Source: an uncultured Planctomycetia bacterium (GTDB lineage Bacteria > Planctomycetota > Phycisphaerae > FEN-1346 > JAACEH01). Taken from it: DNA of 64,000 nt. Position 1 is the first letter of the stretch. The number at the start of each line of letters is the position of its first letter. A model generated the notes under the pieces. That model was given only the letters and a program-made list of their open reading frames with translations. It did not search any database and was not told where the DNA came from. The position numbers and the translations under genes were made by a program. Shown one piece after another: positions 8,216 to 26,446 of the stretch. The stretch lies in the NCBI GenBank assembly GCA_903929765.1, contig CAIYVX010000063.1, forward strand, positions 10,174 through 74,173, written 5' to 3'.

Positions 8216-8226
8216 CGCAGCTTTAT

Positions 8227-8250: not shown

Positions 8251-8277
8251 TCTTCTTCTGTATAACTCTTCCGCAAA

Positions 8278-8769: not shown

Positions 8770-9698
8770 TTTTTCCAATGCTCGTAACCTCCCGGCATGA
8801 GCGCCGCCGCGTGGCTGTGCTGATCGACCAGCACCCGCCCCTCCCCCGCCGCCACAATCCGTCCGATCACCGTCACCGGTACGCCCAGATCAAGTTTTCC
8901 TAGCGCCGCCGCATCTGCCGCCTCGCAGGTGAACAGCAGTTCAAAATCCTCGCCATCATTAATCGCATGATCGAGCGCCGTCCGCCCGTCTCGAGCCGCC
9001 ATTTTTTCCGCCGCCGCCGACACCGGCACCTTCGCCCCCTCGATCACCACCCCCACACCGCTCTCCTGGCAAATGTGCCCGATGTCGCTCGAAAGGCCGT
9101 CCGACAAATCCATCATCGCCCCCAGCCGCACCGCCGCCGCCAATTTTCGCGCCTCCGCAATGCGCGGCGGAAAGGTCAGGTGCCGCCCCAGGAGCGACCC
9201 GCCCAGCGAGCCGGTTACTGCCACCACTTGCCCCACCTTCGCACCATTGCGCCGCACCGGCTTTTCCGCCCACGCCAGCACCGTCACCGTAATCGCCAGC
9301 GGCGCGTCCCACGCCGTAATGTCCCCGCCCACCCACCGGCACCCGTAAGCGTCCGCGCACCGCTTGATCCCAGCAAAAATCTCCTGCGCCGCCGTCATCG
9401 CCATCGTTCGCGGCAACGCCAGCGTCCCCACCCCGCAAATCGGCTCCGCCGCCATCGCCGCCACGTCCGACAGGTTCACCGCCAAAGCCTTCCACCCCAC
9501 GTCCGCCGGCGCATCGCGCCGCAAATCAAAATGCGTCCCCTCCAGAATCGCATCCGTCCCCACCAGCACCCGCCCGCCCGTCGGCAGCCGCACTTCCGCC
9601 ATGTCGTCCCCCGACCCGATGGTCGTCACCCCATCCTCCGCCGGCAATTGCGACCGGATCCAATTGATATACGCAAATTCGCCCGAAGGTTCTGTCAT
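8766..9698 (-). CDS. thiL: Thiamine-monophosphate kinase.
   Basis: GEFAYINWIRSQL...IGSGDDMAEV...GTDAILEGTHF matches the AIR-synthase-related fold of ThiL. The first ATG is at 9698. The upstream TTG at 9716 is a less likely start. Confidence 0.85.
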   Translation of the reverse strand: MTEPSGEFAYINWIRSQLPAEDGVTTIGSGDDMAEVRLPTGGRVLVGTDAILEGTHFDLRRDAPADVGWKALAVNLSDVAAMAAEPICGVGTLALPRTMAMTAAQEIFAGIKRCADAYGCRWVGGDITAWDAPLAITVTVLAWAEKPVRRNGAKVGQVVAVTGSLGGSLLGRHLTFPPRIAEARKLAAAVRLGAMMDLSDGLSSDIGHICQESGVGVVIEGAKVPVSAAAEKMAARDGRTALDHAINDGEDFELLFTCEAADAAALGKLDLGVPVTVIGRIVAAGEGRVLVDQHSHAAALMPGGYEHWKK

Positions 9699-11883: not shown

Positions 11884-13134
11884 TTAAACCAAACCTTTCT
11901 TCCGCGCCAACTCTTCAAACAACTCTTCATGCCGTTTCACAAACCGTTCCGCCGAAAACTCCTGACGCACCCAGGCTTTTCCTTCTTCCGCCATGCGCCG
12001 CGTTTCGTCCTCGTATTTCAGCGCCTGAAAAATCCCCGCCGCGATGCCTTTGGGATACCCCGGCTCCACCAGCCGTCCGCAACGCCCGTCGGCCACCAAC
12101 TCGCGCATCCCCGCCACGTCGCTCACCACCACCGGCGTCCCCGCCAGCATCGCCTCCAGCACCGCGTTGCTCATCCCCTCGTGGAAACTCGGCAGAATAA
12201 ACAGGTCCGCACGCCGCAAAATCGCCGGCACGTCCGTCCGCGGCCCCACCAGTGTCACGTACCCCTCCACCCGCATCCGCTCCACTTCAAACGCCAGCCG
12301 CGACCGCTCCGGCCCGTCCCCCACAATCCACAAATGCACCGGGCAACGCGTGTGCCGCAACAGGCCCATCGCCCACATCAGGTAAATCAAGCCCTTCTGC
12401 CGCGTCAGCCGACATGCCGTCACCACCAGCTTGTGCCCCGCCGGCACCTCCGGCAGTTGCACAGTGGCACGGGCATCTTGCCCGTGAGTCGCAGGGGCAT
12501 CTTGCCCCTGTGCCTTTGTTGCTTTTTTTTCTTCTTCACCCCTCTCCCTTGAGGGGAGAGGGTAGGGAGAGGGTGTTGCTTCTTCTTTTTCTTCGCTGTT
12601 GTTCTGTTGTTCAATCTCCCCCAACTTTATCCCCGCATGAATGACCCGAATCTTCTCCGCCGGCCAACCGTGCCCCAGCCCATATTCCCGCACCCCCGCC
12701 GAGTTGGCCACAATCGCATCCGTCCGCCGCCCCAGCCGCCGGTCCAGCCAATGGTGCAATCCCGGCTTCGGCCCGCTGTCCTGTTCCCCCGCCACGATCA
12801 CCGGCACCCCCGCCCGCAGCGCCGCCGCCCGACCGAACGCGTTCGCCGTGAACATCCACGTGTACGCAATATCCGTCTGCCGCTCTTTCAGCAGCCGCTC
12901 CAGGCGCAGCACCACGCGCAGGTCGTACTTGAACGCCTTATTCAGTATCGTTACCGGAATCCCCGCCGCCCGAATTTCCGCCTCATGCGGCCCGCCTCGC
13001 GTCAGCGCATAGACGTCCACCTCGAACCGCGCCGGGTCGAGCCGCCGAGCCAGCAGGGCCAACTGCTTCTCCGCTCCCGCCCGGTCCAGTGTCGCGATAA
13101 TCAAGGCCACCCGCAACTTTCTCATGGGAGGCAC
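11884..13134 (-). CDS. GT4-family glycosyltransferase carrying an in-frame low-complexity insertion of about 55 aa encoded by palindromic repeats.
   Basis: The N-terminal Rossmann domain (KLRVALIIATLDRAGAEKQ) and the C-terminal EGMSNAVLEAMLAGTPVV are typical of GT4. The insertion GEIEQQNNSEEKEEATPSPYPLPSRERGEEEKKATKAQGQDAPATHGQDARATVQLPE is encoded by repeat DNA at 12468-12575. Confidence 0.8.
   Translation of the reverse strand: MPPMRKLRVALIIATLDRAGAEKQLALLARRLDPARFEVDVYALTRGGPHEAEIRAAGIPVTILNKAFKYDLRVVLRLERLLKERQTDIAYTWMFTANAFGRAAALRAGVPVIVAGEQDSGPKPGLHHWLDRRLGRRTDAIVANSAGVREYGLGHGWPAEKIRVIHAGIKLGEIEQQNNSEEKEEATPSPYPLPSRERGEEEKKATKAQGQDAPATHGQDARATVQLPEVPAGHKLVVTACRLTRQKGLIYLMWAMGLLRHTRCPVHLWIVGDGPERSRLAFEVERMRVEGYVTLVGPRTDVPAILRRADLFILPSFHEGMSNAVLEAMLAGTPVVVSDVAGMRELVADGRCGRLVEPGYPKGIAAGIFQALKYEDETRRMAEEGKAWVRQEFSAERFVKRHEELFEELARKKGLV
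12468..12575. repeat. Cluster of palindromic repeats inside the GT4 coding sequence: tandem hairpins CACGGGCATCTTGCCCGTG (12468-12486) and CAGGGGCATCTTGCCCCTG (12492-12510), plus CACCCCTCTCCCTTGAGGGGAGAGGGTAGGGAGAGGGTG (12537-12575).
   Basis: Perfect 8-bp stems are visible. The first hairpin recurs intergenically at 57412-57430. The CCCTCTCCC...GGGAGAGGG type recurs at 20971-21020, 38896-38949 and 45051-45094. Confidence 0.75.
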
Positions 13135-13423
13135 ATCTTACACCGCTCCCGCCGGCAGGACAAGGCTGCGGCCATCGGCTTTGCCGTGGAAGGGACAGGG
13201 CACGCCCTGTCCGGCTGTTGTTGTGTGCGGGAAGGGGCGTTTTTTCTCCGCCCTGGCCGTACCGGCGGGAGCCGGCGCCCAAAGTTTTTTCTGCTGTTTC
13301 TTTTGTTTCTGCCGTACCTGAAGCCTGCTGTTCTGAAGTCGGCCGTTCCAAAACAGCGCGGACCAAGCCTCTGCCTTCAGAAGCCTGGTCCGCGATTCTC
13401 GTAAGCTGAAAGAACTTCCTGGG

Positions 13424-13738
13424 TTACCAGCGTCCGCCGCCGCCACCGCCGCGCCCGCCGCGACCACCACCCCCGCCGCCACCGCCGCCGGCCGCCTTGG
13501 GCTTGGCCACGTTGACGGTCAGTTTGCGCCCGTCCACATCGCGCCCGTCGAGCGCCGCTATGGCCGCCTGGGCTTGGCTGTCATCGCCCATTTCGACGAA
13601 GCCGAAACCACGCGATTGCCCCGTGGCCCGGTCGGTGATGAGCGACACACGCTGAATCTCGCCAAACTCGGAGAAAAGCTGGCGAACTTCTTCTTCGCCA
13701 AACCCGAACGGCAGATTCCCCACATAAATATTCACCAT
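13424..13738 (-). CDS. RRM-domain RNA-binding protein with a glycine/arginine-rich tail.
   Basis: NIYVGNLPF (RNP2) and RGFGFVEM (RNP1) followed by a GGGGGGGGRGGRGGGGGG tail. The start is MVNIYVG at 13738. Confidence 0.85.
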   Translation of the reverse strand: MVNIYVGNLPFGFGEEEVRQLFSEFGEIQRVSLITDRATGQSRGFGFVEMGDDSQAQAAIAALDGRDVDGRKLTVNVAKPKAAGGGGGGGGGRGGRGGGGGGRW

Positions 13739-13966
13739 CCAAGTGCTCCCGTGAACTGCAACCGAACCGGAGGCCGATCCGCGCGGTCCCGCGACCACGC
13801 TGAAAAGAGAGTGCCGCCCGTCGGCAGTCTGATATCCTATCTACAGTTGACCGCAGGGGACGGTTTAATGCAAGTTAATTCCAGCGGGATTGACGATCGA
13901 CCACCGGCCACGCCGCCACCGGACGACTTGTGCCCCACGCCGCCGTCGATTACAATTCCATTTGCT

Positions 13967-15175
13967 ATGAAAACTTCGAGGAAGGACAAGTTCGGCCGAA
14001 AGAGCATCGCGGCTCTGGCGGCCAGGAAGACGCTGTGCGTCGCCGGGCTGATGTCGGGCACCTCCGCCGACGGCGTGGACGTGGCCGTGGTCGACCTCGG
14101 GCCTGGAGGCGCGAAGGTCGTGGCTTTCGCCAGTTATCCCTATCCGAAAGAGGTTCGAGAGTTGGTCTTCGAGTTGTTCGACCCGCAGACGGCGCGGGTG
14201 GAGGCCCTCTGCCACGCCAATTTCGTGCTGGGCGAAGTTTTTGCCGAGGCCGTGTTGCGGCTCTGCCGGGAACAGGGCGTGAAACTGACCTCCATCGACC
14301 TGATCGGCTCGCACGGTCAAACCGTTTGCCATTTGCCGCAGGGAAAAAAATTCGGCGGACGGCTGATCCGCTCCACGCTCCAGATCGGCGAACCGTGCGT
14401 CATCGCCGAGCGGACGGGCATTACGACCGTGGCCGATTTCCGCCCGCGCGACATCGCCGCCGGCGGCGAAGGAGCGCCGCTGGTGCCCTTCACCGACTGG
14501 CTGCTCTTCGCCGACCCGCGCCAGACGCGCTGCGTCCAGAACATCGGCGGCATCGCCAACGTGACCTTTCTCCCGGTCGGCGGCGGCGTGGAAAAAGTCC
14601 TGGCCTTCGACACCGGGCCGGGGAACATGATCATCGACCGCCTGGCCTGGCTGGCGACGAAGGGGAAAAGGAATTTCGATAAGGATGGGGAAATGGCGGC
14701 GCGGGGACGGGTGGACACGAAACTTCTGGCAGGATTGATGGGGCATCGGTATTTCACCCGCCGTCCGCCGAAATCGACCGGCCGCGAAATGTTCGGCGTC
14801 GAGTATTCAACCACACTCTACAAATTGGCCAAAGAGGACCAGCTTGAACCGCGAGATATTCTCGCTACCGTCACCGCTTTCACCGCCCGGAGCATCGCCG
14901 ACGCCTACCGCCGGTTTCTTCCGCGTCAGCCCGACGAGGTAATCCTCTGTGGCGGCGGAGCGAGGAATCCGACGCTGGTGGCCATGCTCCGCGAGGAGTT
15001 GCCCGCATCTCGCGTCATGGTCATGGACGAACTGGGCATCAACGCCGACGCGAAAGAGGCGATTTCCTTCGCCCTCCTGGCCCGCGAAACGATTCGCGGC
15101 GCCGCCGGAAACATCCCCGCCGCCACCGGCGCCCGGCGGCGCGTGGTGCTGGGCAAGATCGTGCCGGGCAGCTAA
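13967..15175 (+). CDS. anmK: Anhydro-N-acetylmuramic acid kinase.
   Basis: The start is MKTSRKDK. GLMSGTSADGVDVAVVD is the canonical AnmK N-terminal motif, and the length is about 400 aa. The upstream part of the track ORF starting at 13574 is non-coding read-through. Confidence 0.9.
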   Translation: MKTSRKDKFGRKSIAALAARKTLCVAGLMSGTSADGVDVAVVDLGPGGAKVVAFASYPYPKEVRELVFELFDPQTARVEALCHANFVLGEVFAEAVLRLCREQGVKLTSIDLIGSHGQTVCHLPQGKKFGGRLIRSTLQIGEPCVIAERTGITTVADFRPRDIAAGGEGAPLVPFTDWLLFADPRQTRCVQNIGGIANVTFLPVGGGVEKVLAFDTGPGNMIIDRLAWLATKGKRNFDKDGEMAARGRVDTKLLAGLMGHRYFTRRPPKSTGREMFGVEYSTTLYKLAKEDQLEPRDILATVTAFTARSIADAYRRFLPRQPDEVILCGGGARNPTLVAMLREELPASRVMVMDELGINADAKEAISFALLARETIRGAAGNIPAATGARRRVVLGKIVPGS

Positions 15176-15246
15176 TCGGGTGTTTGACCGCGCCGCCAAG
15201 TTCTGCTAAACTCCCTTCAACCTTAACCCAGAAAGAAGGTAATTCC

Positions 15247-15768
15247 ATGGCGAAGAATGCGAATCCCACGTTGCTCATGACCACCAGCGAAGGCGAGGTC
15301 AAAATCGAACTCTGGCCGGACACGTCGCCGGCCACCGTCGAAAACTTCCTGACCTACGCCAAGGAGGGATTTTACGACGGCACGATCTTCCATCGCGTCA
15401 TCAAGGACTTCATGATCCAGGGCGGCGGATTCACGCCCGAGATGAAGCAGAAGGCCGTCCATGCCCCCATCAAGAACGAGGCCCGGACCGACGCGGCGAA
15501 CAACCGCGGCACCCTGGCCATGGCCCGGACCAACGACGTCAACAGCGCCACAGCCCAGTTTTTCATCAACGTCGTCGATAACGCCTTCCTGACCCATCGC
15601 GACAACACGTCGTCGGGTTTCGGCTACTGCGTCTTCGGCCAGGTCGTCGAGGGGCTGGACGTCGTGGACCGCATTCGGCAGGTGAAAACCCGCAGCGTCG
15701 GCGGCTTCGACGACGTGCCGCAAAAGCCGGTGGTGATCGAAAGCGTGAAAGTGGTCGAAGAGAAATAA
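15247..15768 (+). CDS. ppiB: Cytoplasmic cyclophilin-type peptidyl-prolyl cis-trans isomerase.
   Basis: The cyclophilin signatures [15 protein letters not shown] and ...[24 protein letters not shown]. The start is MAKNANP, with an AAGGT ribosome-binding site. Confidence 0.9.
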
Positions 15769-15785
15769 TCGAGGAGGAACCTGCA

Positions 15786-16445
15786 ATGCGAAAGATGCCG
15801 AGGACGATGTTGTTGGCGGCGCTGGTGGCGGGATATCTGGTCGGCTGCGCGCACAGCGCACCACCCAAGAGCAGCACGCCGGCAACTGCGGCGGCCACGA
15901 ATCAGGCGGCGGTTTCGGCAGCGCCGGCGAAGCCGATGAATCCGCTGATCCTGATCACGACGAGCGAAGGCACGATCAAGATTGAACTCTGGCCGGACAA
16001 GGCCCCGGCTACGGTGGAGAATTTCCTGGCCTACTCCAGGGAAGGTTTCTACGACGGCACGATCTTCCATCGCGTCATCCCGACTTTCATGATCCAGGGC
16101 GGCGGCTTCAGGGCCGACATGGTCCAGAAGCCCACCCACGCGCCGGTCAAGAACGAAGCTCGCAGCGATACGCCGAACAATCGCGGCACCATCGCCATGG
16201 CTCGGACCAACGCGATAGACAGCGCCACGGCCCAGTTCTTCATCAACGTGAAGGATAATGCGAATCTGAACCATAGCAACGACCCGCATCATGGCTTCGG
16301 TTACTGCGTCTTCGGCCTGGTGGTCGAGGGAATGGACGTGGTCGACCGGATTCGCCAAGTGCCGACGCACATGGTCGGCCCGATGGGCGATGTGCCGGTC
16401 ACGCCCGTGGTGATTCAAAGCGTGAAAGTGGTGGAACAGAAGTAG
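15786..16445 (+). CDS. ppiA: Lipoprotein cyclophilin-type peptidyl-prolyl cis-trans isomerase, a paralog of the preceding gene.
   Basis: Signal peptide and lipobox LVGC, followed by the cyclophilin core [15 protein letters not shown]. Confidence 0.9.
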
Positions 16446-17358: not shown

Positions 17359-19022
17359 ACGGCGACAATTCGGTTTGGAATACTCTGACGCGGGCGCTGG
17401 GTTGGGGCGACGTGGCGGTGGTAGTCGCAGCCACGGCGGCGCTCTTGGTGATTGCGGCCGTGGCCGGGCGGCGGCAGAAGGACACCCGCGATTACTTCAT
17501 CGGCGAGCGGAAAATACCGGCCTTCGTCGTCTGCCTCTCCTTCGTGGCCACCGAAATCAGCGCCATGACGATCCTCATTGTCCCGGCGGCGGCCTTTGGC
17601 GAAAACTGGAACTATCTCCAACTCTTCATCGGTTCGGTCGCCGCCCGCATCTTCATCGCCTTTTTCTTCCTGCCGCGCTTCTACAAGCACAACGTCACCA
17701 GCATCTACGAATACCTACGCATCCGCTTCGGCCCGGCCACGCAGTACGCCGGATCGATCTTCTTTTTCATCACGCGGCTCCTGGCCTCCGGCATCCGCCT
17801 CTACGCCGCCTGCATGGGCATTGCCATCCTGCTCGGCGCCAGCCGCACCGCTGGCGGCGCCGTCGATGACACCTGGCTCTTCTGGACCATGCTCTTCTTC
17901 GTCCTCGTGAGCGCCGCCTTCACGGCCCTGGGCGGCATTCGCGGCGTGGTCTGGAACGGAGCTTACGAGGCGGTCTTTTTCTACGTCACCGCCGTGGTCC
18001 TCGCGGTCTTTCTGATTCTGCACTTACGCGGCAGCCCTGGCGAAATCTGGCACACCGCCGCCAGCGCCGGGCGGATGGAAGTCTTCAACTTCCGCCTCGA
18101 CATCACCGACGCCAAGACGATCTGGGCCGTGCTGCTCTTCTCCTTTTTCGTCGATGCCGCCGTTTACGGCACCGACCAGGAATTCGTCCAGCGTCTCCTG
18201 ACCGTCAAGACGCGGCAGGCGAGCCAGCGGGCCATGCTCGGCACCATCCTGGCCGGTTTTCCACTGGTCGCCCTCTATCTCTGCGTCGGCACGCTGCTCT
18301 TCGTTTTCTACCAGCAGAACCCGGCGGCCGCGCTGCCCGGCAAAACCGACGAAATCCTCCCTCATTTCGGCACGATGCTGCCGATGGGCCTCAAGGGCCT
18401 GCTGCTGGCGGCCATCGTCCTGGCCGGGATTCACCTGCCGCTCAATTCGCTTTCATCGTCATTTGTCATGGATATTTATAAACGGCTGCTGGTGCGGCAG
18501 GCTTCGGAGCGGCACTATCTGTGGGTGTCGCGCGGGTCGGTCCTGGTCTTCGGCCTGCTCTTGGGCCTGATCGCCTGGCAATTTCGTTCGAGCAAGGGGA
18601 TTCTGTGGATCGGCTTCCAGATTCTCTCCGTCACGGGCGGGGCGACGCTGGGCGTGTTCATGCTGGGCGTGTTGACCAAGCGCCGCGGGAACCGTGGGAA
18701 CGTCGTGGCCATGATCGCCAGTTCGCTGGTGATGCTGACGCTGTTGCTCCTGTCGCACGGGAAACTGTCGTGGCCGGATTGGCCGTGGCTGCGCTCGACG
18801 CTCGACGCGATGAACGATTTCAGCCGCACGAACGCTGCGGGGCACTGGGCGGCGACGGCGATTTATCATGCGGCCCACATCGGCTGGAGTTGGCTGATCG
18901 TGATCGGAACGGGGCTGACGTTCGCTCTGGGGTGGTTACTGGGGCGAAGCGGCTCCGCGACCGGAGACGAAAATCCGGTCGGACCTCTTGACAATCGGGC
19001 CAACGTTAGACAAAATGTCTAA
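17355..19022 (+). CDS. Sodium:solute symporter (SSS) family transporter, translationally coupled to murQ.
   Basis: 555 aa with about 13 predicted transmembrane segments and an SSS-type N-terminal region. The ATGA start/stop overlap with murQ is at 17355-17358. Confidence 0.85.
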   Translation: MNGDNSVWNTLTRALGWGDVAVVVAATAALLVIAAVAGRRQKDTRDYFIGERKIPAFVVCLSFVATEISAMTILIVPAAAFGENWNYLQLFIGSVAARIFIAFFFLPRFYKHNVTSIYEYLRIRFGPATQYAGSIFFFITRLLASGIRLYAACMGIAILLGASRTAGGAVDDTWLFWTMLFFVLVSAAFTALGGIRGVVWNGAYEAVFFYVTAVVLAVFLILHLRGSPGEIWHTAASAGRMEVFNFRLDITDAKTIWAVLLFSFFVDAAVYGTDQEFVQRLLTVKTRQASQRAMLGTILAGFPLVALYLCVGTLLFVFYQQNPAAALPGKTDEILPHFGTMLPMGLKGLLLAAIVLAGIHLPLNSLSSSFVMDIYKRLLVRQASERHYLWVSRGSVLVFGLLLGLIAWQFRSSKGILWIGFQILSVTGGATLGVFMLGVLTKRRGNRGNVVAMIASSLVMLTLLLLSHGKLSWPDWPWLRSTLDAMNDFSRTNAAGHWAATAIYHAAHIGWSWLIVIGTGLTFALGWLLGRSGSATGDENPVGPLDNRANVRQNV

Positions 19023-19325
19023 GTGCGAACAATCAGTCTGAAACCCTTGCGGGACTTCTGGGAGCGTCACCCTGACGCGGAGCGGCCCTTGCGGCTCTGG
19101 TACAAGACGGTCGTTTGCGCCCGCTGGGACAATTTACAGGACGTGCGACAGGATTATCCCCACGCGGACGGCATCAGGACGACCGACGGCGGCACGCTGA
19201 CCGTTTTCAACATCGGCGGCAACAAATATCGGCTGGTGGCGCGCATTCGTTATGACTATGGGTTAGTGAACGTGCGGGCCGTGTTGACGCACGCGGAATA
19301 TAATTCAGGTAGGTGGAAGGAATAG
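19023..19325 (+). CDS. higB: Type II toxin-antitoxin system HigB-family toxin (RelE/ParE fold). It has a GTG start immediately after the TAA stop codon of the transporter gene.
   Basis: FWERHPDAERPLRLWYKTV...VFNIGGNKYRLVARIRYDYGLVNVRAVLTHAEYN matches the HigB-toxin family pattern (FN[IV]GGN.[YL]R[LV]V...THAEYD). Confidence 0.85.
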   Translation: MRTISLKPLRDFWERHPDAERPLRLWYKTVVCARWDNLQDVRQDYPHADGIRTTDGGTLTVFNIGGNKYRLVARIRYDYGLVNVRAVLTHAEYNSGRWKE

Positions 19326-19328
19326 ATT

Positions 19329-19760
19329 ATGGCCGGGACAAAACATATCGTCGGGCGAGAAAAGTTGCCGGGACGGTTCGAGGAACTGGTGCGCGTGATG
19401 CCGCCGCAGAGCATCGTGGATGAGGTGCACTACGAGAACACGCTGGAGATGGTCGATCGTCTGATGGTCGTGGGTCGCCTGACCCGGGGACAGGAACTTT
19501 ACCTGGAGACGCTGGTCGAACTGGTCGAGGCCTTCGAGGCCCGGCAGCACGCCATTGAGACGGCGGACCTCACGGGGCTGGATTCTCTGCGCCACCTGCT
19601 GGAAGCCAATGAAATGGACGCTTCGGACCTGGGACGACTGCTGGGCATCCACGCCAGCATGGGGTCGAAGATTCTGAAGGGTCAACGGGCACTGACGGTC
19701 GGCCATCTGCGAAAACTTGCGAACCGCTTCAAGGTCAGCCCGCAGTTGTTCATGGATTGA
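19329..19760 (+). CDS. higA: HigA-family antitoxin (XRE-type helix-turn-helix).
   Basis: 143 aa. The C-terminal DASDLGRLLGIHASMGSKILKGQRALTVGHLRKLANRFKVSPQLF is an HTH_XRE domain. It starts 3 nt after the higB stop codon. Confidence 0.8.
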   Translation: MAGTKHIVGREKLPGRFEELVRVMPPQSIVDEVHYENTLEMVDRLMVVGRLTRGQELYLETLVELVEAFEARQHAIETADLTGLDSLRHLLEANEMDASDLGRLLGIHASMGSKILKGQRALTVGHLRKLANRFKVSPQLFMD

Positions 19761-19771
19761 AACCCATTTTA

Positions 19772-19799
19772 ATGTCGGGTCTGTTGACCCGACCTACAT
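19772..19799. repeat. REP-type palindrome in inverted orientation (ATGTCGGGTC-TGTT-GACCCGACCTACAT), 12 nt after the higA stop codon.
   Basis: Perfect 8-bp stem. Same family as 525-550. Confidence 0.8.
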
Positions 19800-19878
19800 T
19801 CTGGCGATTAGTAAAATATTATCAGGATTTCCAGAGAACCGATAAATGATCGGCTGCTGCGAGTCTGGAGGCAGACCC

Positions 19879-20460
19879 ATGGGTGAAGTCTGGAAAATAA
19901 ACCTTGCGTCATGGATCATCCAAGACGGGAACTACGGCGATTTTGCCAAGGGCGACGAGTGTGAGTTTGCCCTTGAATTCTGGCCAGAGAGGCTTGAACT
20001 CACCGAACGGGCACAACCTTGTTGCACCTGGGTTAAGGACTGCTATTACAGCGTGACTGCTCGCATTGTTATGTGCCAGGAAGACGTTTGGGTACTCAAC
20101 TTCGGCCTGCTGGCCTATCAGGAATCATCGCCGCTGAAAGGACTGGCCATCGGTGATTGTGTGGCAGGAAGGATCGGCATTGGCATTGATCCCTTTTTCT
20201 ACTCCGAGCGCCTGCACGCCTTGCCCGGTATGCCGCCGCTGAATTACTCGTGGAAGATAGAGCGAATTCTACTCCAAACCGCGCCTTTCGTTGAAACAAC
20301 AAGGCCCGGTACCGGCAAAGTATTGGTGCGTGATGAAAGCAACCGCGGCTATCGCGATATCGGTAAGACGGATGCTTGGCATGACGATGGAGGCATCGCC
20401 GAGTATCTTTTGGAGTGTCGCCACAATGAAATTACACCGGCTCAGAGGACTTTGGCGTAG
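19879..20460 (+). CDS. Hypothetical Cys-rich protein of low GC, with no family I recognise.
   Basis: A strong ribosome-binding site GGAGG sits 7 nt upstream of the ATG at 19879. GC is about 52%. The protein is MGEVWKINLASWIIQDGNYGDFAKGDECEFALEFWPE... Confidence 0.5.
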   Translation: MGEVWKINLASWIIQDGNYGDFAKGDECEFALEFWPERLELTERAQPCCTWVKDCYYSVTARIVMCQEDVWVLNFGLLAYQESSPLKGLAIGDCVAGRIGIGIDPFFYSERLHALPGMPPLNYSWKIERILLQTAPFVETTRPGTGKVLVRDESNRGYRDIGKTDAWHDDGGIAEYLLECRHNEITPAQRTLA

Positions 20461-22034
20461 ATGACTTTGTCGTCGGCGGGGGCGTAGAAGTCTTTGACGC
20501 GGGCGGCTTCGTGGTAGCCGACGCGGAGGTAGAAGGCGCGGGTGGAGTGGTAGCTGGGGCGGCCGTTGGTTTCGACGATGACCAGGCGGCCGGCGCGGGT
20601 GCGGATTTCATTTTCGGCGAAAGTCATCAGGGCCTTGCCGAGGCCGCGCGATTGGCGGCGCGGATCGACGGCGATCCAATAGATATCGAAGGTACCCTGG
20701 GCGCAGGGGGCGGGACCGTAACAGACCCAGCCGGCAGGACGGCCGTCGAGGTCGGCAGTAATAGATTGGTAATGGCCGTGATGGCCTTTGGCCAGGGCGT
20801 CGTCGAGGACTTCGCGGGCGATTTCTATTTCGTCGTCGCGGAAAAAGTCAGTGGCGATCATGAATTCGAGAATGGGGTCGCGGTCGGCGGGGAGGGAGCG
20901 GCGGATCGAAAAACTAGGGTCTGTCCCTAGTTTTTGGGAGACGTTCGTGGAGTCTGACGCACAGGGCCTCAACCCCTCACCCGGCCCTTGCGGGCCACCC
21001 TCTCCCGAGGGAGAGGGGTTAAAAGCAGCAAGGCGACGGGCGGCGTTTTCGACCAGGGTGCGGATGAACTCGTGGTAGGGGATGTTGGCGGCGGCGAGGG
21101 CGGCGGCCAGGCCGGCGTCGGAGGAAAGGTCGGGGTTGGAGTTGACCTCAATGATGGAAGGTGAGACGCGCTGGTCGAGGCGGAGATCGACGCGGACGTA
21201 GTCGCGGCAACCGAGGGCGTGCCAGGCGTCGAGGACGCACTGGCGGACGCGGTCGGCCTGGCGCGAGGTGAGCGGCGCGGGGATGATGCGATTTGTATGG
21301 TGATATTCAAATGATTCCGGTTGCCACTTGGCGGCATAGCCGACGATGCGCGGTCGGTCGTTGCCGAAGTCGGAGAAGTCGATTTCGGCCAGGGGCAGGA
21401 CCTGGGGCAGGCCGCGACGCTCGATGACGGAGACGTTGAGTTCGCGCTGGCCGACGAATTGTTCGACGAGGGCGGGCTGGTGGAACTGGTGGTGGATGGC
21501 GTGGATGGCTTCGGCGAGTTTCGGTCCCGGCTCGGAAACGACGGAATGGGCGTCGATGCCTTCGCTGGCGTCGGCGGCGACGGGTTTGACGATCCAGGGT
21601 CCGGGCGGGAGGTCGCGCGGGCGGACGGCCTGGCCGACGGGAATAAGCACGGCGGCGGGGCACGGGAGGCTGGCGGCGGCGAGGACGGCTTTGGAGCGCC
21701 ATTTGTCGAGGGTGAGGAAAAGGTTAGGCGTGTCGCCGCCGGTGGATTCTTTGCCGTAGGCGGCGCAGAGGGCGGGGACGGAGGCGGGCGAGCCGGGACC
21801 GAGGCGGAGCTCTTCGACCAGGTTGAAGACGAGCGGTTCGGGTGCGGCGGCGAGGATGGCGGGGAGGTCGGCGAGCGAGCGGAGGCCGAGGGCGCGGTAG
21901 GCGACGCCGAGTTGGCCGAGGGCGGCGACGACGGCTTCGACTTCGGCGAGGACTCCGGTGTCGCTGGCGGAGAATTTGTCTCCGGCTTCGGGAGTGTTAA
22001 AGAGAATGATAACGGCGGGAAGTTCGGCGTTCAT
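20442..22034 (-). CDS. Fusion protein with an N-terminal D-Ala-D-Ala-ligase-like ATP-grasp domain and a C-terminal GNAT N-acetyltransferase domain. The two domains are joined by a linker that is encoded by a palindromic repeat.
   Basis: The true start is MNAELPAVIILFN (ATG at 22034, overlapping the upstream stop codon in an ATGA arrangement). ATP-grasp blocks: WIVKPVAADASEGI and IIEVNSNPDLS. Linker: NPSPSGEGGPQGPGEGLRP. GNAT block: IRRSLPADRDPILEF...QSRGLGKALM...GYHE. The 5' 290 nt of the 626-aa ORF in the track are read-through across the upstream gene. Confidence 0.75.
   Translation of the reverse strand: MNAELPAVIILFNTPEAGDKFSASDTGVLAEVEAVVAALGQLGVAYRALGLRSLADLPAILAAAPEPLVFNLVEELRLGPGSPASVPALCAAYGKESTGGDTPNLFLTLDKWRSKAVLAAASLPCPAAVLIPVGQAVRPRDLPPGPWIVKPVAADASEGIDAHSVVSEPGPKLAEAIHAIHHQFHQPALVEQFVGQRELNVSVIERRGLPQVLPLAEIDFSDFGNDRPRIVGYAAKWQPESFEYHHTNRIIPAPLTSRQADRVRQCVLDAWHALGCRDYVRVDLRLDQRVSPSIIEVNSNPDLSSDAGLAAALAAANIPYHEFIRTLVENAARRLAAFNPSPSGEGGPQGPGEGLRPCASDSTNVSQKLGTDPSFSIRRSLPADRDPILEFMIATDFFRDDEIEIAREVLDDALAKGHHGHYQSITADLDGRPAGWVCYGPAPCAQGTFDIYWIAVDPRRQSRGLGKALMTFAENEIRTRAGRLVIVETNGRPSYHSTRAFYLRVGYHEAARVKDFYAPADDKVIYAKVL
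20971..21020. repeat. Palindromic repeat AACCCCTCACCCGGCCCTTGCGGGCCACCCTCTCCCGAGGGAGAGGGGTT that forms the in-frame interdomain linker of the ATP-grasp/GNAT gene.
   Basis: Outer inverted repeat AACCCCTC/GAGGGGTT, with inner hairpins GGCCCTTGCGGGCC and CCCTCTCCCGAGGGAGAGGG. Same family as 12537-12575, 38896-38949 and 45051-45094. Confidence 0.75.
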
Positions 22035-23023
22035 GGGACGATTCCGAGGCGGAGGCAGGCGCTGCGGATGATAGTGTCGATCAGTTTTTCGTAGGGGAGA
22101 CCTTCCTGGGTGGCGATCATGGGGAGGTCGCTGTGGGTGGGGTGGATGCCGGGCAAAGGGTTGAGTTCGATAAAGACGGGACGGCCGGCGGCGTCGCAGC
22201 GGACGTCGACGCGGCCCATGTCGCGGCACTCGAGGGTGCGGTAGGCGGCGAGGGCGAGGCTCTCGACCTCGTCGCGGAGCGGGCCGCGGGCCAGGGCGGA
22301 ATAGCGGACGAGCGTCTCGCACTTTTCCTTGTTCTCATAGGAATAGATGGCGTCACCGGCCTGGGGCAGGATTTCGACTTCCATGGTGCCCAGCACTCGG
22401 GCGGCGGGGCCCGTGCCGAGGACGGCGGAGGTAAACTCGCGGCCGGGGAGGTATTCTTCGATGAGGACGGGCTGGGCGAATTGTTTGAGGAGCGAGCGGC
22501 AGACTTCGCGGAGTTGGGCGGGCGAGTCGATGCGGGAGCGGGCGTCGATGCCTTTTCCGGTGCCCTCGGCCAGGGGTTTGGCGAAGAGGGGGAAGGGGAG
22601 CGCGACGGCGGCGAGGTCGGTTTCGGCGGCGACGACGTGGAAGCGGGCGGTGGGCAGGCCGGCGGCGGCGACAAGGCGTTTGGCGACGGCTTTGTCGAGG
22701 GTGACGGCGCAGGCGAGGCCGTCGCTGCCGACGTAGGGGACGCCGTAAAGTTCAAGGAGGCAGGGCACCTGGGCTTCGCGGTTTCGGCCGCGCAGGCCTT
22801 CGGCGATGTTGAAGACGAGGTCCCAGCGTTCGGCGGCGACGAGGCGGCGGCAGAGTTCCCAGGCGTGGCCGATGCGGACGGTGCGGTGGCCGAGCGAGCG
22901 GATGGCGGCGTCGAGGGCGTCGATGGTCGACGCGGAATCGAACTCGGCGACTTCCTCGGCGGTGTGGCCGCGATCGAGGTAGTCCTGGCGCAGGTCGTAG
23001 GTTAAGCCGATGGTGAGGCTCAT
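22031..23023 (-). CDS. D-alanine--D-alanine ligase family ATP-grasp protein.
   Basis: YGVPYVGSDGLACAVTLDKAVAKRL, PLFAKPLAEGTGKGI and FIELNPLPGI match the Ddl fold motifs. It is translationally coupled to the downstream ATP-grasp/GNAT gene. Confidence 0.8.
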   Translation of the reverse strand: MSLTIGLTYDLRQDYLDRGHTAEEVAEFDSASTIDALDAAIRSLGHRTVRIGHAWELCRRLVAAERWDLVFNIAEGLRGRNREAQVPCLLELYGVPYVGSDGLACAVTLDKAVAKRLVAAAGLPTARFHVVAAETDLAAVALPFPLFAKPLAEGTGKGIDARSRIDSPAQLREVCRSLLKQFAQPVLIEEYLPGREFTSAVLGTGPAARVLGTMEVEILPQAGDAIYSYENKEKCETLVRYSALARGPLRDEVESLALAAYRTLECRDMGRVDVRCDAAGRPVFIELNPLPGIHPTHSDLPMIATQEGLPYEKLIDTIIRSACLRLGIVP

Positions 23024-23032
23024 GGGGTTTAC

Positions 23033-24403
23033 CTAGAACAGTTGCTCGGCGGCGGAAACGCCGTGGCGTTGTCGGCGGCGGCCGCCGCGCGAAGTTTCGG
23101 CGGGAGCGATGGCCGAGGCGCGGCCGGTGGCCAGTTCCCAGACGCCGGGCGAGGCGGCGCCGGGCGCGGGCGGACCGGCGGGAGCGGCAGCGTGCGGCTC
23201 CGGGTAGGAGACCAGCATGCCCTCGAAGTTGCGCAGGACGGTGTGGGTCGGGCTGGTGGAGACGATGTAGTTGGGCAGGACGGGCACCTTGCCGCCGCCG
23301 TGCGGGGCGTCGATGACAAAGGTGGGAATGGCCAGGCCGGAGAGACGGCCGCGCAGGTATTCCATGATTTCGATACCGCGTGAGACGGGCGTGCGGAAAT
23401 GTTCGACGCCGCGCACCAGATCGCATTGGTACATGTAATATGGTTTGACGCGAATTTTAACCAGGGCGCGGCAGAGGCGTTCCATGAGTTGGGGGTCGTC
23501 ATTGATGCCCTTGAGGAGTACGGACTGGTTGCCCAGGGGAATGCCGGCGTCGGCCAGGCGCGTGCAGGCTTCGGTCGATTCGGTGGTGATTTCGTTGGGG
23601 TGGTTGAAATGGGTGTTGATGAAGAGCGGGTGGTATTTGCGGAGCATTTCAACCAGTTCAGCCGTGATGCGCTGGGGCATGGTGACGGGCGTGCGCGTGC
23701 CGATGCGGATAATATCCACGGTCGGGACAGAGCGGACGGCAGCGAGGACGCGCTCAAGAGATTCGGTGGTCATGGTCAGCGGGTCGCCGCCGGAGACGAT
23801 GACGTCGTGGATTTCCGGGTGCTGGCGCAGATAGGCGACGACCTGCTGGAGGCGAATCGGAGAGATTGAAGATTCGCGGGCGCCGGCGACGCGCTTGCGG
23901 GTGCAGTGGCGGCAGTACATGGCGCAGGTCGAAGTGGCGATGAGGAGGGCGCGGTCGGGATAGCGGTGGACCAGGCCGGGCACGGGCATGTCGTGATCCT
24001 CTTCGAGCGGATCGTCGCAGAGGAAGGGTGGATCGTTGAGTTCCTGGGCCTGGGGGACGCACATCTGGAAGATGGGGTCGGAGGCGTCGGGATTCTGGAT
24101 GAGCGAGGCGTAGTAGGGCGTGATGGCCAGGGGAAATTTTTCGGCGGCGCGCACGAGGGACGGCTGGCCGCGCAGTACCGGGAAACATCTGAGGAGTTGG
24201 TCGACGGAGCGGAGGCGATTTCGCATCTGCCACCGCCAGTTGTCCCAACGGTTATTGTTTTCGCGATTGAGAAGTCCGGCGGATGGGGCCGGGTCAAACG
24301 ATTCCGTGGCCGCACATGAGAGAGGAGGTTCGTCGGCGGAAACGGAGGGAGGTTCATCAAGTGAGGCTGGTGAAGCCTCCGACGAAGAAACTTTTGTCTT
24401 CAT
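23033..24403 (-). CDS. KamA-family radical-SAM aminomutase (lysine 2,3-aminomutase-like), with a low-complexity N-terminal extension of about 50 aa.
   Basis: The radical-SAM cluster TCAMYCRHCTRKR (CxxxCxxC in a KamA-type context), then VIVSGGDPL, and a length of 456 aa. Confidence 0.85.
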   Translation of the reverse strand: MKTKVSSSEASPASLDEPPSVSADEPPLSCAATESFDPAPSAGLLNRENNNRWDNWRWQMRNRLRSVDQLLRCFPVLRGQPSLVRAAEKFPLAITPYYASLIQNPDASDPIFQMCVPQAQELNDPPFLCDDPLEEDHDMPVPGLVHRYPDRALLIATSTCAMYCRHCTRKRVAGARESSISPIRLQQVVAYLRQHPEIHDVIVSGGDPLTMTTESLERVLAAVRSVPTVDIIRIGTRTPVTMPQRITAELVEMLRKYHPLFINTHFNHPNEITTESTEACTRLADAGIPLGNQSVLLKGINDDPQLMERLCRALVKIRVKPYYMYQCDLVRGVEHFRTPVSRGIEIMEYLRGRLSGLAIPTFVIDAPHGGGKVPVLPNYIVSTSPTHTVLRNFEGMLVSYPEPHAAAPAGPPAPGAASPGVWELATGRASAIAPAETSRGGRRRQRHGVSAAEQLF

Positions 24404-24570
24404 AATGTGTAACTGCTCTCCAAAAAAACCTTTGACCGATCATCCGGTGCGAGACTCCGATGGCGCAATATATAATCCTTGAGTAGGGTCAAGTCAACAG
24501 AGAATCATCGTCGTTTGGAAAAAATTTCTTTAGCGTCCCCCAATGGGGAGAAGAAAAAAGGTGGTCTAAC

Positions 24571-24590
24571 CCCCTACGGCTAGGGGGAAG
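24571..24590 (-). terminator. Candidate terminator after the stand-alone GNAT gene. On the minus strand it reads CCCCCTAGCCGTAGGGGG followed by TTAGACCACCTTTTTT.
   Basis: A 7-bp GC stem with a T6 run 10 nt downstream on the coding strand, about 110 nt after the stop codon at 24702. Confidence 0.35.
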
Positions 24591-24701
24591 GCGGGGCATG
24601 GGGTTTTTTGGTGGGGATAATTGTGGTGGGGGCTGAGGGGAGGGATTTGACAAAGCAGGCGATGATTTGACAAAGGCGAGGATGCCGGGCCAGGGCTCGA
24701 T

Positions 24702-25152
24702 CTACAATTCCAGTTCAAACATTTCGTAGGCGGCGGGGGCAAGACCGAGGGCGCGGTAGGTGGATTGAGCGGGGAGGTTTTGGCGCTCTACATAGAGGCG
24801 GAGGCCGCAGATATTTCCGGCGCGGCGGGCTTCGGCAAGGAGGTGGGCTTGGAGGGCGCGGTAGACGCCGTGGCGGCGCGCTGCGGAGGCGACGTAGACG
24901 GATTGGATCCACCAGAAGTTGGCGTTGCGCCAGTCGCTCCATTCGAAGGTAACGAGGAGTTGGCCGATGACCTCCCCTGCCCTCTCGGCGAGAAGGTAGA
25001 AACCTTTGGCGGAGTCGGCGAGGACAGCTTCTGTGCCGCGGCGGACGGTGGCGGGGTCGAGACGTTTGTTCTCGGTTTCGAGGGCCAGGGCGGCGTTGTG
25101 GGCGGCGATGAGGGAGGCGTCGGAGGGAAGAGCGCGGCGAAGGACAAGTTCG
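24702..25152 (-). CDS. GNAT-family N-acetyltransferase.
   Basis: The real start is MPELVLRRALPSDASLIAAHN (ATG at 25152). The acetyl-CoA motif region is QSVYVASAARRHGVYRALQ. The upstream 45 codons of the ORF in the track lack a start context. Confidence 0.75.
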
Positions 25153-25171
25153 GGCATTTGGGAGGCTCCGG

Positions 25172-25250
25172 AGAAAATTAAAACAGCGAATATCGAATAT
25201 CGAACACGGAACCGCAGAATCACGAAGTCAGATTCCGGTGAGAACGGTTT
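25172..25250. repeat. Truncated copy of an AT-rich complex element (AACAGCGAATATCGAATATCGAACACGGAACCGCAGAATCACGAAGTCAGATTCCGG). It is about 85% identical to the left half of the element at 50829-50949.
   Basis: Direct comparison of the two loci. This copy is locally AT-rich within the GNAT-lgt intergenic region. Confidence 0.65.
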
Positions 25251-25309
25251 GTTCTTCATGGCCACGCTACGCGTGACCATGCCACCCACCGTTTGTGGTT
25301 AGACACGAC

Positions 25310-26446
25310 CTACTTCTTTCTGCGCGGCGGCTTGTCGACGGATGCTGGGTCGGGTTGCCAGCGGAGGTCGGAATATTTGCTGTGGGGGAGCCAGAGGAAA
25401 TAGAGGATGGCGGCGGCGAAGACGAAGATGCCGACGGCCTGGGAGATGGAAAGGGAGCCGAAATAGATTTTGGCTTCGTCGACGCGGAGCATTTCGATCA
25501 GGAAGCGACTGACGGCCTTGAGGGCGAAGAAGCCGCCGATCAGGAGGCCGTGGCGCCAGCGGAGGCGGTAGCCGAGGTGGAGGACGAGGAAAATGAGGAA
25601 GGCGTTGAGGGCGCTGTAGAGTTGGGCGGGGTGGACGGGCATGGTGCGGAGGTCGCCCTGGCAGATCCGGTGGGCGTCCAGGTAGGCGGCGTAGGGAATG
25701 GAGCCGGCGGGCCAGGTGAGGCCCCAGGGCAGGTCGGTGGGTCCGCCGTAGCAGCAGCCGTTGAGGAAACAGCCGAGGCGGCCGAACATGAGGCCGAGGG
25801 CCAGGCTGGGGGCCATGATGTCGAGGAGTTGGAGCGGGTTGACACCGTAGCGGCGGCGGGCGTAGAGGAGATAGGGAATGGCGGCGAAGACGGCGAGGAG
25901 GATTCCGCCATAGGCGGTGAGACCGCCGCTGGTGACGGAAAGTGCCTGGATGAAGCCGTCGAAAGGCAGAGCGTTGGGGGAATAGCCGGCGGCCAGGGCG
26001 GCGGCGCGGGCGTGGATGATGAACCCGGCGCGGCCAAGGACGAGGGCGCCGAAGACCGCGTAAATTGTAATTGAGATAATAAAATGCTTTTTCACCTGGC
26101 GGGGGCCGGGGAGGATTCCGAAGGCGGCGGCGAGGGCGGCGCCGGCCAGTCCGGCGAGGGTCCACCAGAGGTCAAGTCCGCCGAGGAGGTTAAAACCGCC
26201 GAGCCAGTCGGGATAGCTGGCGGAATATTCGAGGACGTCGAAAAGCCGGGCGCCGACGATGCCGCCCAGGAGGGCGACGATGCCGAGGTTGTAGACGTGG
26301 TCGGGGCTGACGCCTTCGCGGCGGGCGCGCCAGGCGGCGACCAGGATGCCGGCGAGGAAGCCCAGGGCCAACATGAGGCCGTAGCCGTGGACGACGGGGT
26401 TCCAGTCGGTGAGCGGGACGTGAATCGTGAAAAGGGTCGGCTGCAT
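25310..26446 (-). CDS. lgt: Prolipoprotein diacylglyceryl transferase.
   Basis: Polytopic membrane protein carrying the Lgt signature around GRLGCFLNGCCYG. Confidence 0.9.
   Translation of the reverse strand: MQPTLFTIHVPLTDWNPVVHGYGLMLALGFLAGILVAAWRARREGVSPDHVYNLGIVALLGGIVGARLFDVLEYSASYPDWLGGFNLLGGLDLWWTLAGLAGAALAAAFGILPGPRQVKKHFIISITIYAVFGALVLGRAGFIIHARAAALAAGYSPNALPFDGFIQALSVTSGGLTAYGGILLAVFAAIPYLLYARRRYGVNPLQLLDIMAPSLALGLMFGRLGCFLNGCCYGGPTDLPWGLTWPAGSIPYAAYLDAHRICQGDLRTMPVHPAQLYSALNAFLIFLVLHLGYRLRWRHGLLIGGFFALKAVSRFLIEMLRVDEAKIYFGSLSISQAVGIFVFAAAILYFLWLPHSKYSDLRWQPDPASVDKPPRRKK

Follow-up and report, generated by a model that had tools for sequence, protein, structure and literature searches.

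Organization of the locus

We analyzed a gene cassette in a 64,000-nt stretch of DNA (here called the window) from an uncultured Planctomycetia bacterium, contig CAIYVX010000063.1. The cassette encodes a KamA-family aminomutase, two ATP-grasp ligases related to D-alanine–D-alanine ligase (Ddl) and an N-acetyltransferase domain of the GNAT family. An earlier note on this DNA had described four consecutive genes on the minus strand, and an open reading frame (ORF) listing with translation confirmed four successive minus-strand ORFs at 20442–25157. Assignment of these ORFs with Pfam and NCBIfam bore out the domain calls of the earlier note, and the resulting E-values exclude chance ORFs. The features of the locus are as follows.

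23033–24403, minus strand: KamA, an AblA-like radical-SAM/PLP lysine 2,3-aminomutase (SAM, S-adenosylmethionine; PLP, pyridoxal phosphate), 456 aa; predicted supplier of beta-lysine
22031–23023, minus strand: Ddl2, Ddl-like ATP-grasp ligase 1, 330 aa; Pfam Dala_Dala_lig_C
22031–22034, minus strand: ATGA stop/start overlap between Ddl2 and AG, reading ...GTC CCA TGA / ATG AAC GCC
20442–22034, minus strand: AG::GNAT fusion gene, 530 aa; Pfam Dala_Dala_lig_C and Acetyltransf_1
21015–22034, minus strand: AG, ligase 2, N-terminal domain of the fusion; Dala_Dala_lig_C, with the Ddl catalytic residues
20904–21014, minus strand: low-complexity Pro/Gly/Ser linker between ligase and GNAT, translation AAFNPSPSGEGGPQGPGEGLRPCASDSTNVSQKLGTDPS
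20442–20903, minus strand: fused GNAT N-acetyltransferase domain; Acetyltransf_1, of the same GNAT family as PDB 2R7H
24404–24701, minus strand: leader/promoter region of the three-gene operon, 298 nt, holding a tandem repeat at 24644–24683
24702–25157, minus strand: stand-alone GNAT, a neighbour probably outside the cassette; Acetyltransf_1 8.3e-13

The KamA and Ddl2 genes are separated by 9 nt. The ATGA overlap that the earlier note had reported between the last two genes is present, and is predicted to couple the two ligase genes translationally. The stand-alone GNAT gene lies 298 nt from KamA; its start had been placed at 25152, a position 5 nt out of frame with the actual ATG at 25157–25155, which has a GGAG upstream. 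No counterpart of this gene was found elsewhere by tblastn (E ≤ 1e-6) in 91 loci and then in 99 loci that carry related cassettes. Because of this absence and the distance from KamA, we consider the conserved unit to consist of three genes rather than the four proposed earlier: three are co-conserved across phyla, whereas the stand-alone GNAT was found in no other locus. As judged from sequence, then, KamA, Ddl2 and AG::GNAT make up the functional unit, four domains encoded by three genes.

KamA has the features of a lysine 2,3-aminomutase

KamA matches the Pfam families LAM_C (1.7e-26) and Radical_SAM (2.9e-12) and contains CAMYCRHCTRKR. Its best-scoring NCBIfam model is AblA (TIGR03820), with 510.2 bits and an E-value of 3.7e-153, which falls below the cut-off of 525.4. 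The glutamate 2,3-aminomutase model (TIGR04368) gave 441 bits against a cut-off of 650, the arginine 2,3-aminomutase model 356 bits against 600, and the EpmB model 253.5 bits against 369. AblA was also the top model for all six KamAs sampled from five cassette architectures, at 456–523 bits, all below the same cut-off. When KamA was aligned with the lysine 2,3-aminomutase (LAM) of Clostridium subterminale (PDB 2A5H; E-value 9.5e-142), the cluster cysteines (CxxxCxxC), Arg134, Asp293, Asp330 and Lys337 proved identical in the two proteins, and the 47 cassette-linked KamAs have them without exception. From the published LAM structure, we take Asp293 and Asp330 to bind the epsilon-ammonium group, Arg134 to bind the carboxylate, and Lys337 to be the PLP lysine. 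Ruzicka and Frey are said to have described, in 2007, a glutamate 2,3-aminomutase with Lys and Asn in place of Asp293 and Asp330.

Since Arg134, Asp293, Asp330 and Lys337 are kept, KamA looks lysine-specific and its product should be beta-lysine, which is thus the likely precursor made by this enzyme. The earlier note had pointed to the Asp293 and Asp330 equivalents as the residues to inspect, and both are those of a lysine aminomutase. Identity as a glutamate 2,3-aminomutase was rejected on the score and on the retention of both aspartates. Membership in the EpmB clade, which the earlier note had held open, was rejected as well, the EpmB score being below cut-off and lower than that of the AblA model.

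The two ligases have remodelled substrate pockets

Ddl2 and AG are paralogues, approximately 30% identical to each other. Both match Dala_Dala_lig_C (PF07478), Ddl2 at 7.2e-30 and AG at 3.9e-19 over residues 146–329 of the fusion; faint TTL-family matches to AG were also seen in Pfam. Among solved structures, chains of Ddl and VanA come closest (Ddl2 at 1e-25, AG at 1e-10), with homology over the full length. Against the Ddl model NF002378, which has a cut-off of 243 bits, Ddl2 scored 162.2 bits and AG 89.1 bits.

We compared the pockets of 48 Ddl2 and 77 AG sequences, those of the window included, by alignment to E. coli DdlB (2DLN), whose numbering is used here. Residues K97, K144, E180, E187, K215, R255, D257, E270 and N272 are invariant or nearly so throughout both sets. 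R255 and S281/A281, the Ddl residues that hold the carboxylate of the small substrate, are kept in Ddl2 and AG alike. The substrate site is altered. Where DdlB has His63, Ser150, Tyr216 and Leu282, Ddl2 has E63, T150, E216 and D282, and AG has E63, A150, W216 and G282 together with D276 in place of Gly276. In AG, W216 is invariant, E63 is found in 73 of 77 copies and D276 in 71 of 77. An acidic residue beside the Glu15 position is an invariant Glu in Ddl2 and is Glu or Asp in 59 of the 77 AG sequences. These data suggest that Ddl2 and AG are probably active ligases with remodelled, more acidic pockets and are not D-Ala-D-Ala ligases; the earlier note had allowed for genuine Ddl enzymes here, and with both scores below cut-off and the substrate residues changed neither ligase appears to be one.

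The acidic residues gained in the pockets would suit a cationic diamino substrate such as beta-lysine. The AG pocket (E63, W216, D276 and G282) is nearly constant in all architectures, including those without KamA, so AG probably handles a constant building block. Position 216 of Ddl2, in turn, is occupied by Glu in loci of the planctomycete type, by Arg in those of the sigma-54 two-component type and by Trp in one further clade. This change of pocket charge between clades suggests that the second building block probably differs by lineage, which would give a family of related products.

The fused GNAT domain belongs to the family of PDB 2R7H

The fused GNAT domain matches Acetyltransf_1 (PF00583) at 2e-11 over residues 407–507. 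Its acetyl-CoA motif, Q461-x-x-G464-x-G466, is invariant in an alignment of 27 sequences (alignment A1), in which the linker at 20904–21014 is not conserved; by these features the domain looks active. When it was scanned alone, only RimI-type NCBIfam models matched, all far below cut-off. The stand-alone GNAT gave weak, non-specific NCBIfam matches only. No AblB-type match was found in NCBIfam, which should include an AblB model, for either the fused domain alone (E ≤ 0.001) or the stand-alone GNAT (E ≤ 0.01). The framing of the locus in the earlier note as an ablA–ablB pair with additional genes therefore serves as an analogy only.

The domain matches PDB 2R7H, deposited as a 'putative D-alanine N-acetyltransferase', with an E-value of 4.6e-35. 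2R7H, whose source is Desulfovibrio desulfuricans/alaskensis G20, comes from structural genomics. GNATs of the 2R7H type belong to the cassette in Desulfovibrio-type loci, and on a contig from a G20-like Oleidesulfovibrio (L097), where genes for a sigma-54 activator, KamA, Ddl2, AG and GNAT follow one another separately, the GNAT is 99% identical to 2R7H. On the strength of this identity and position, the orphan structure 2R7H is assigned as the acetyltransferase of this cassette.

The cassette is conserved across phyla

The fusion protein has hundreds of homologues at approximately 50% identity, named from metagenome-assembled genomes (MAGs) of Planctomycetota and Phycisphaerae. An exhaustive search with the ligase–GNAT protein, in which each 50%-identity cluster was represented by one sequence, gave 843 matches at E ≤ 1e-30. 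Loci were collected from GTDB species representatives (7 loci), from metagenomes by a scan with alignment A1 (80 loci) and by exact protein look-up (8 loci). Those of the GTDB representatives belong to Planctomycetaceae, Verrucomicrobiota, Planctomycetes, Bacteroidetes and Desulfuromonadales. The cassette was also found in Desulfovibrio mangrovi, the G20-like Oleidesulfovibrio, a Pseudomonadota MAG and a Woeseia MAG, and Gammaproteobacteria are among the groups represented. Among 35 well-flanked loci, in which AG has 3.5 kb or more on each side, KamA is present in 25, Ddl2 in 28 and both in 24.

The gene order Ddl2, AG, GNAT is constant, with KamA either before or after it. The arrangement TetR, KamA, Ddl2, AG::GNAT is the planctomycete/verrucomicrobial type, and Ddl2, AG::GNAT, KamA is found in Bacteroidetes, Desulfuromonadales and others. 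A third arrangement consists of Ddl2, a PAS histidine kinase, a sigma-54 response regulator, a second response regulator, KamA and AG; no GNAT was found in the locus of this type. KamA, Ddl2, AG and GNAT occur as separate genes in D. mangrovi, the G20-like Oleidesulfovibrio, the Pseudomonadota MAG and the Woeseia MAG. AG::GNAT is the common fusion form among the homologues, and Ddl2::AG tandem fusions of 637–712 aa were found in at least seven cluster representatives (P0372, P0378, P0379, P0389, P0395, P0396 and P0398), in which the Ddl2-type domain is 46–56% and the AG-type domain 32–37% identical. The co-conservation, constant order and fusions seen in these sequences across phyla exclude chance adjacency. 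Conservation among Planctomycetota genomes, which the earlier note had proposed to check, thus holds for the three genes and extends to other phyla.

Two pairs of loci depart from the usual arrangement. In L008 and L009, from a Planctomycetes MAG resembling ADurb.Bin126, a DUF6786 protein of 378 aa takes the place of Ddl2 and precedes AG::GNAT with a 2-nt gap (6862–9605); no KamA was found within 8 kb in these loci. In L010 and L011, a PIN-domain/DUF6364 toxin–antitoxin pair and a 142-aa ORF lie between Ddl2 and AG::GNAT (6337–7869). This is the second case of a toxin–antitoxin module at this cassette, the first being the HigB/HigA pair of the window.

Regulatory features and accessory genes

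A TetR gene stands before KamA in 11 related loci; no TetR gene or remnant was found in the window. The leader upstream of KamA in the window contains a tandem 20-nt direct repeat at 24644–24683 (GATTTGACAAAGCAGGCGAT / GATTTGACAAAGGCGAGGAT), in which GATTTGACAAAG... occurs twice with 80% identity, and this repeat could be a regulator binding site. The region 19000–26000 gave no Rfam match to a riboswitch or leader RNA at E ≤ 1, no strict sigma-70 consensus site was found in the leader, and terminator-like matches were at or below chance level. Two elements picked out by eye upstream of KamA, TTGACT-17-TATATA and GG-N10-GC, are weak, and we make no claim for them.

Desulfovibrio-type loci contain a gene for a sigma-54 activator. 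Near-consensus sigma-54 promoters of the form TGGCAT-N5-TTGC are found 122 and 143 nt upstream of KamA in two of the loci (L096, TGGCATATCTGTTGC; L097, TGGCATGGCAGTTGC), beside the gene for the sigma-54 enhancer-binding protein. From these sequences, the cassette appears to be sigma-54-dependent in Desulfovibrio-type bacteria. In five loci of the sigma-54 two-component type that are close relatives of one another, and only there, a small lipoprotein-like ORF of 63–71 aa (MKKWIFLLLAMVLVINLAA..GC.., rich in Ala, Pro and Lys) lies approximately 350–570 nt upstream of KamA (L076, L081, L083, L087 and L090).

Four proteobacterial/Desulfovibrio-type loci have, in or beside the cassette, orthologues of a histone deacetylase (HDAC)/acetylpolyamine-amidohydrolase protein of approximately 580 aa that are 58–61% identical to one another. 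Their positions are given below.

L093, 1603–3387: HDAC-family protein
L096, 8629–10386: HDAC-family protein
L098, 5268–7004: HDAC-family protein
L099, 5505–7001: HDAC-family protein, 498 aa as called, with the N-terminal part in a separate frame

Three positions are represented among these four loci, the gene lying on the upstream side of the cassette, on its downstream side, or between the AG and GNAT genes. Three of the four proteins have a weak GNAT-like region at the N-terminus. No HDAC-family protein was found in the window or in planctomycete-type loci.

Two related loci carry a Ddl2–AG–GNAT module without KamA (L057, 5222–11506; L073, 3482–10108). Both have a deoxyhypusine-synthase-like gene upstream of the module and, downstream, a SAM methyltransferase and a second GNAT; L057 has, in addition, genes for agmatinase and a pyruvoyl arginine decarboxylase upstream. 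The gene content of these two loci suggests a link between the module and polyamines. Taken with the HDAC-family partners, it makes a small N-acetylated aliphatic amine the likely chemical handle.

Clustering of all ORFs from 91 loci revealed no conserved transporter, peptidase, lysine-fermentation gene or asparagine synthetase. Apart from the cassette genes themselves, the families common to at least five of the 91 loci are regulators and lineage-specific neighbours confined to a single group of closely related loci, one of these neighbours being an rRNA/tRNA-type methyltransferase; annotation covered part of these shared families. Genes for an MFS (major facilitator superfamily) transporter and an ABC exporter flank distant AG-GNAT homologues. 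As no transporter is co-conserved, the product of the cassette is probably cytoplasmic.

Surroundings of the cassette in the window

A HigB_toxin (PF09907) gene and an HTH_3 antitoxin gene are found at 19023–19760, and a 204-aa orphan gene adjoins them, the pair and the orphan together spanning 19023–20460. The 3' end of the orphan gene overlaps that of the fusion gene by 19 nt in convergent orientation. The orphan had no Pfam, NCBIfam or PADLOC match, and none of five proteins gave a PADLOC defence-system match at E ≤ 0.001. GC content is 0.56–0.59 in the 1-kb windows of 19001–21000, which hold higBA and the orphan, versus approximately 0.62–0.68 in most of the window. In L095, a relative at 80% identity, the cassette is followed by a PMT_2-family protein (a weak Pfam match) and a B12-binding radical-SAM protein, and then by an SSF symporter and MurQ; the same SSF symporter and MurQ genes flank the cassette of the window. 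With the flanks shared and other genes in the slot of higBA and the orphan, the toxin–antitoxin module is the variable insert, beside a syntenic cassette. The accessory-region context that the earlier note had read into this neighbourhood was misleading in this respect.

The upstream neighbours of the cassette in the window are housekeeping genes, of which Lgt and PanD are confirmed and PanC, FolK and an aminotransferase were identified from translations. The peptidoglycan-recycling genes near the cassette of the window are not conserved in other phyla. Translations also indicate, between AnmK-like and MurQ-like genes, an RRM-type RNA-binding protein with a long Gly/Arg tail and two tandem genes for cyclophilin-type peptidyl-prolyl isomerases nearby (13424–13798 and 15184–16445); the second of the cyclophilin-type proteins appears to begin with a signal or lipoprotein leader. 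The GC skew of the plus strand changes from approximately -0.3 over 1–13 kb to between +0.2 and +0.3 from approximately 20 kb, with a cumulative minimum at approximately 13–15 kb. This shift, at approximately 13000–16000, is unusually large; an origin or terminus of replication could lie here, or a boundary in strand composition.

A proposed pathway to a beta-lysine-derived amide

The cassette encodes, as one co-inherited unit by the sequence criteria above, a lysine-type aminomutase, two catalytically intact ligases and an intact GNAT. We propose, with a probability of approximately 0.55, that the cassette at 20442–24403 directs the biosynthesis of a small amide compound derived from beta-lysine. 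In the first step, which is well supported by sequence, KamA would turn L-lysine into beta-lysine (3,6-diaminohexanoate) by radical-SAM/PLP chemistry. Ddl2 and AG would then each form one amide bond by way of an acyl-phosphate intermediate, and the GNAT fused to AG would N-acetylate an amine that is free on beta-lysine or on the ligation product. The product in this bacterium would be an N-acetylated di- or tri-'peptide' containing beta-lysine. The most plausible role for it is that of a stress or compatible solute or of a polyamine-like metabolite, and it is here that the explanation is weakest. Acetyl-beta-lysine and the product of the NAGGN pathway make a compatible-solute role plausible by analogy. 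Osmoadaptation is not specifically indicated by what accompanies the cassette in other loci, namely sigma-54 and TetR regulators, the deacetylase and polyamine genes.

Several points weigh against this proposal. The pocket assignments are drawn from alignment to the E. coli enzyme DdlB. The score of KamA falls slightly short of the AblA cut-off, which leaves room for another stereochemistry or for a related basic substrate. Approximately 30% of the well-flanked loci lack a nearby KamA, and beta-lysine may thus not be an obligatory substrate of the ligases. In versions of the cassette that include a deacetylase, the acetyl group could be a transient protecting group rather than part of the final product.

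The KamA-less loci also bear on a broader reading, possible but doubtful, in which Ddl2, AG and GNAT form a widespread amine-conjugating machine that takes di- or polyamines supplied by neighbouring genes. Most lineages would use beta-lysine from KamA; the variants with a deoxyhypusine-synthase-like gene would use amines of the putrescine or homospermidine type. The products would be a new class of cationic pseudo-peptides that can be N-acetylated and deacetylated, with the second building block set by position 216 of Ddl2. If this were true, anaerobes and Planctomycetota would have in them a functional counterpart to glutathionylspermidine or carnosine.

Comparison with known systems

The AblA/AblB system of methanogens and the kamA–yodP pair of B. 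subtilis share with the cassette an AblA-type aminomutase and a GNAT encoded in one operon, and they yield, as the cassette is predicted to, an N-acetylated small molecule derived from beta-lysine. To our knowledge, AblAB-made acetyl-beta-lysine is the sole beta-lysine solute pathway. That system differs in having no ligation step, whereas the cassette has two ATP-grasp ligases as obligatory partners, in many cases joined in one polypeptide with the GNAT or with each other; in addition, the cassette GNAT is of the 2R7H type and not AblB, and the cassette KamAs tested all score just under the AblA cut-off. An AblA/AblB pathway to N-epsilon-acetyl-beta-lysine has been predicted in Pelobacter carbinolicus (PMC3543383).

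With Ddl and VanA, the cassette ligases share the fold and the ATP-grasp catalytic residues, and an acyl-phosphate mechanism is expected for them. They differ in their scores (162.2 and 89.1 bits versus 243) and in their substrate residues (H63E in both, Y216E or Y216W, L282D or L282G, and G276D). A ddl gene is commonly located among mur/fts genes; the cassette ligases have KamA and a GNAT as their linked genes and TetR or sigma-54 proteins as their regulators.

In the NAGGN pathway, the bifunctional enzyme Ngg, with AsnO as its partner, unites a GNAT and an ATP-grasp domain and makes N-acetylglutaminylglutamine. The likeness to AG::GNAT lies in a single polypeptide with an N-acetyltransferase and an ATP-grasp ligase that makes an acetylated dipeptide solute. 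The GNAT comes first in Ngg, whereas the ligase comes first in the cassette; the ATP-grasp domain of the cassette is Ddl-type, its precursor enzyme is an aminomutase, and an AsnO-type asparagine synthetase is not among its conserved neighbours. We set the cassette apart from Ngg by the description of that enzyme, and by the 25 of 28 NCBIfam matches of the whole fusion that were displayed.

Carnosine synthase, an ATP-grasp ligase that joins beta-alanine and histidine, activates the carboxylate of a beta-amino acid, and the microviridin system comprises two ATP-grasp enzymes and a GNAT. Both differ from the cassette in employing other ATP-grasp subfamilies, and the cassette would make its beta-amino acid in situ by a radical-SAM enzyme.

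Alternative explanations

An unlikely alternative is that the cassette modifies a macromolecule, with the ligases attaching beta-lysine or a short beta-lysine tail to a protein or to peptidoglycan and the GNAT capping an amine. Models for this exist in EpmA/EpmB acting on elongation factor P (EF-P), in RimK or TTL tailing, and in the ATP-grasp D-aspartate ligase acting on peptidoglycan precursors. KamA-family enzymes supply the beta-lysine for EF-P modification, and the deoxyhypusine-synthase family modifies the eIF5A lysine equivalent to that of EF-P, so that the deoxyhypusine-synthase-like neighbour of the KamA-less variants speaks for such a role. It also gains from the faint TTL-family matches to AG, from the RimI-type protein acetyltransferases that are the best named matches of the GNAT, though far below cut-off, and from the lack of a conserved exporter. 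EpmA/EpmB resembles the cassette in that a KamA-family aminomutase supplies beta-lysine to an ATP-dependent amide-forming ligase; it differs in having an EpmB-clade aminomutase and a LysRS-paralogue ligase, whereas the cassette has an AblA-like KamA, which scores 253.5 bits against the EpmB cut-off of 369, and ATP-grasp ligases. A tblastn search with EF-P of E. coli detected no efp gene in the window or in 91 loci. No candidate target gene is co-conserved, and the peptidoglycan-recycling neighbours in the window are not conserved in other phyla. The retained R255 and S281/A281 and the acidic residue by Glu15 are likewise those expected for free amino-acid substrates.

We consider it quite improbable that the cassette makes a beta-lysine oligomer or polymer, comparable to the beta-lysine chain of streptothricin or to storage polymers of the cyanophycin type, with one ligase priming, the other elongating, and the GNAT and deacetylase controlling charge or toxicity. 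Two paralogous ligases with acidic pockets would match a bond whose two partners are both cationic, the pairing of acetyltransferase and deacetylase resembles self-protection, and sigma-54 control in Desulfovibrio-type loci fits a nitrogen-rich compound. Ddl-family enzymes, however, are single-turnover dipeptide ligases and not polymerases. The ORF clustering revealed no conserved exporter, primer protein or depolymerase, and the change of Ddl2 position 216 between Glu, Arg and Trp by clade is hard to square with a homopolymer.

A graspetide-like RiPP, a peptide made by ribosomes and modified after translation, in which the ligases would cross-link a precursor, the GNAT would acetylate its N-terminus and KamA would act on a lysine residue, recalls the microviridin inventory of two ATP-grasp enzymes and a GNAT, but it is very improbable: no small ORF (18–90 aa) in or around the cassette is conserved across 69 loci as a counterpart to the precursor peptide of microviridin, the window genes are 9 nt apart or overlapping and so leave no room for one, the ligases are full-length Ddl-type, KamA keeps the residues for a free lysine carboxylate and epsilon-amine, and neither a peptidase nor an ABC exporter is conserved. 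Equally remote is the idea of ordinary unrelated neighbours, with real Ddl ligases beside a plain AblA/AblB pair or the first step of lysine fermentation, which would agree with the public annotation of homologues ('D-alanine-D-alanine ligase', 'GNAT family N-acetyltransferase') and with the KamA score near the AblA cut-off, but not with ligases far below every Ddl cut-off that have lost Tyr216 and His63, nor with co-conservation, constant order and fusions across phyla, two GNATs that are not AblB-type, and the absence of beta-lysine 5,6-aminomutase and other lysine-fermentation genes (kamA, kamDE, kdd, kce, kal as a cluster) from the shared gene families of the 91 loci.

Significance

The cassette is a combination of known enzyme families that is undescribed and widely conserved. 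The earlier note knew of no annotated pathway for this gene set, and the literature searched likewise contained no account of the cassette; an in-silico mention is possible in the survey of ATP-grasp amidoligases by Iyer et al. 2009. Its genes are routinely annotated as 'D-alanine–D-alanine ligase', which falsely suggests a role in the cell wall. The cassette is widespread and consistently mis-annotated, and is not paradigm-changing. Through it, the orphan structure PDB 2R7H acquires a genomic context. For D. alaskensis G20 a transposon mutant library is available (PMC4045070), and the presence of the cassette in an organism with a GNAT 99% identical to 2R7H means that its function could be tested quickly. 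The clade-wise switch of charge in the Ddl2 pocket provides a natural series for the specificity of Ddl-type ligases. By adding two amide-forming steps to beta-lysine, the proposed beta-lysine amide pathway points to a probably new family of metabolites.

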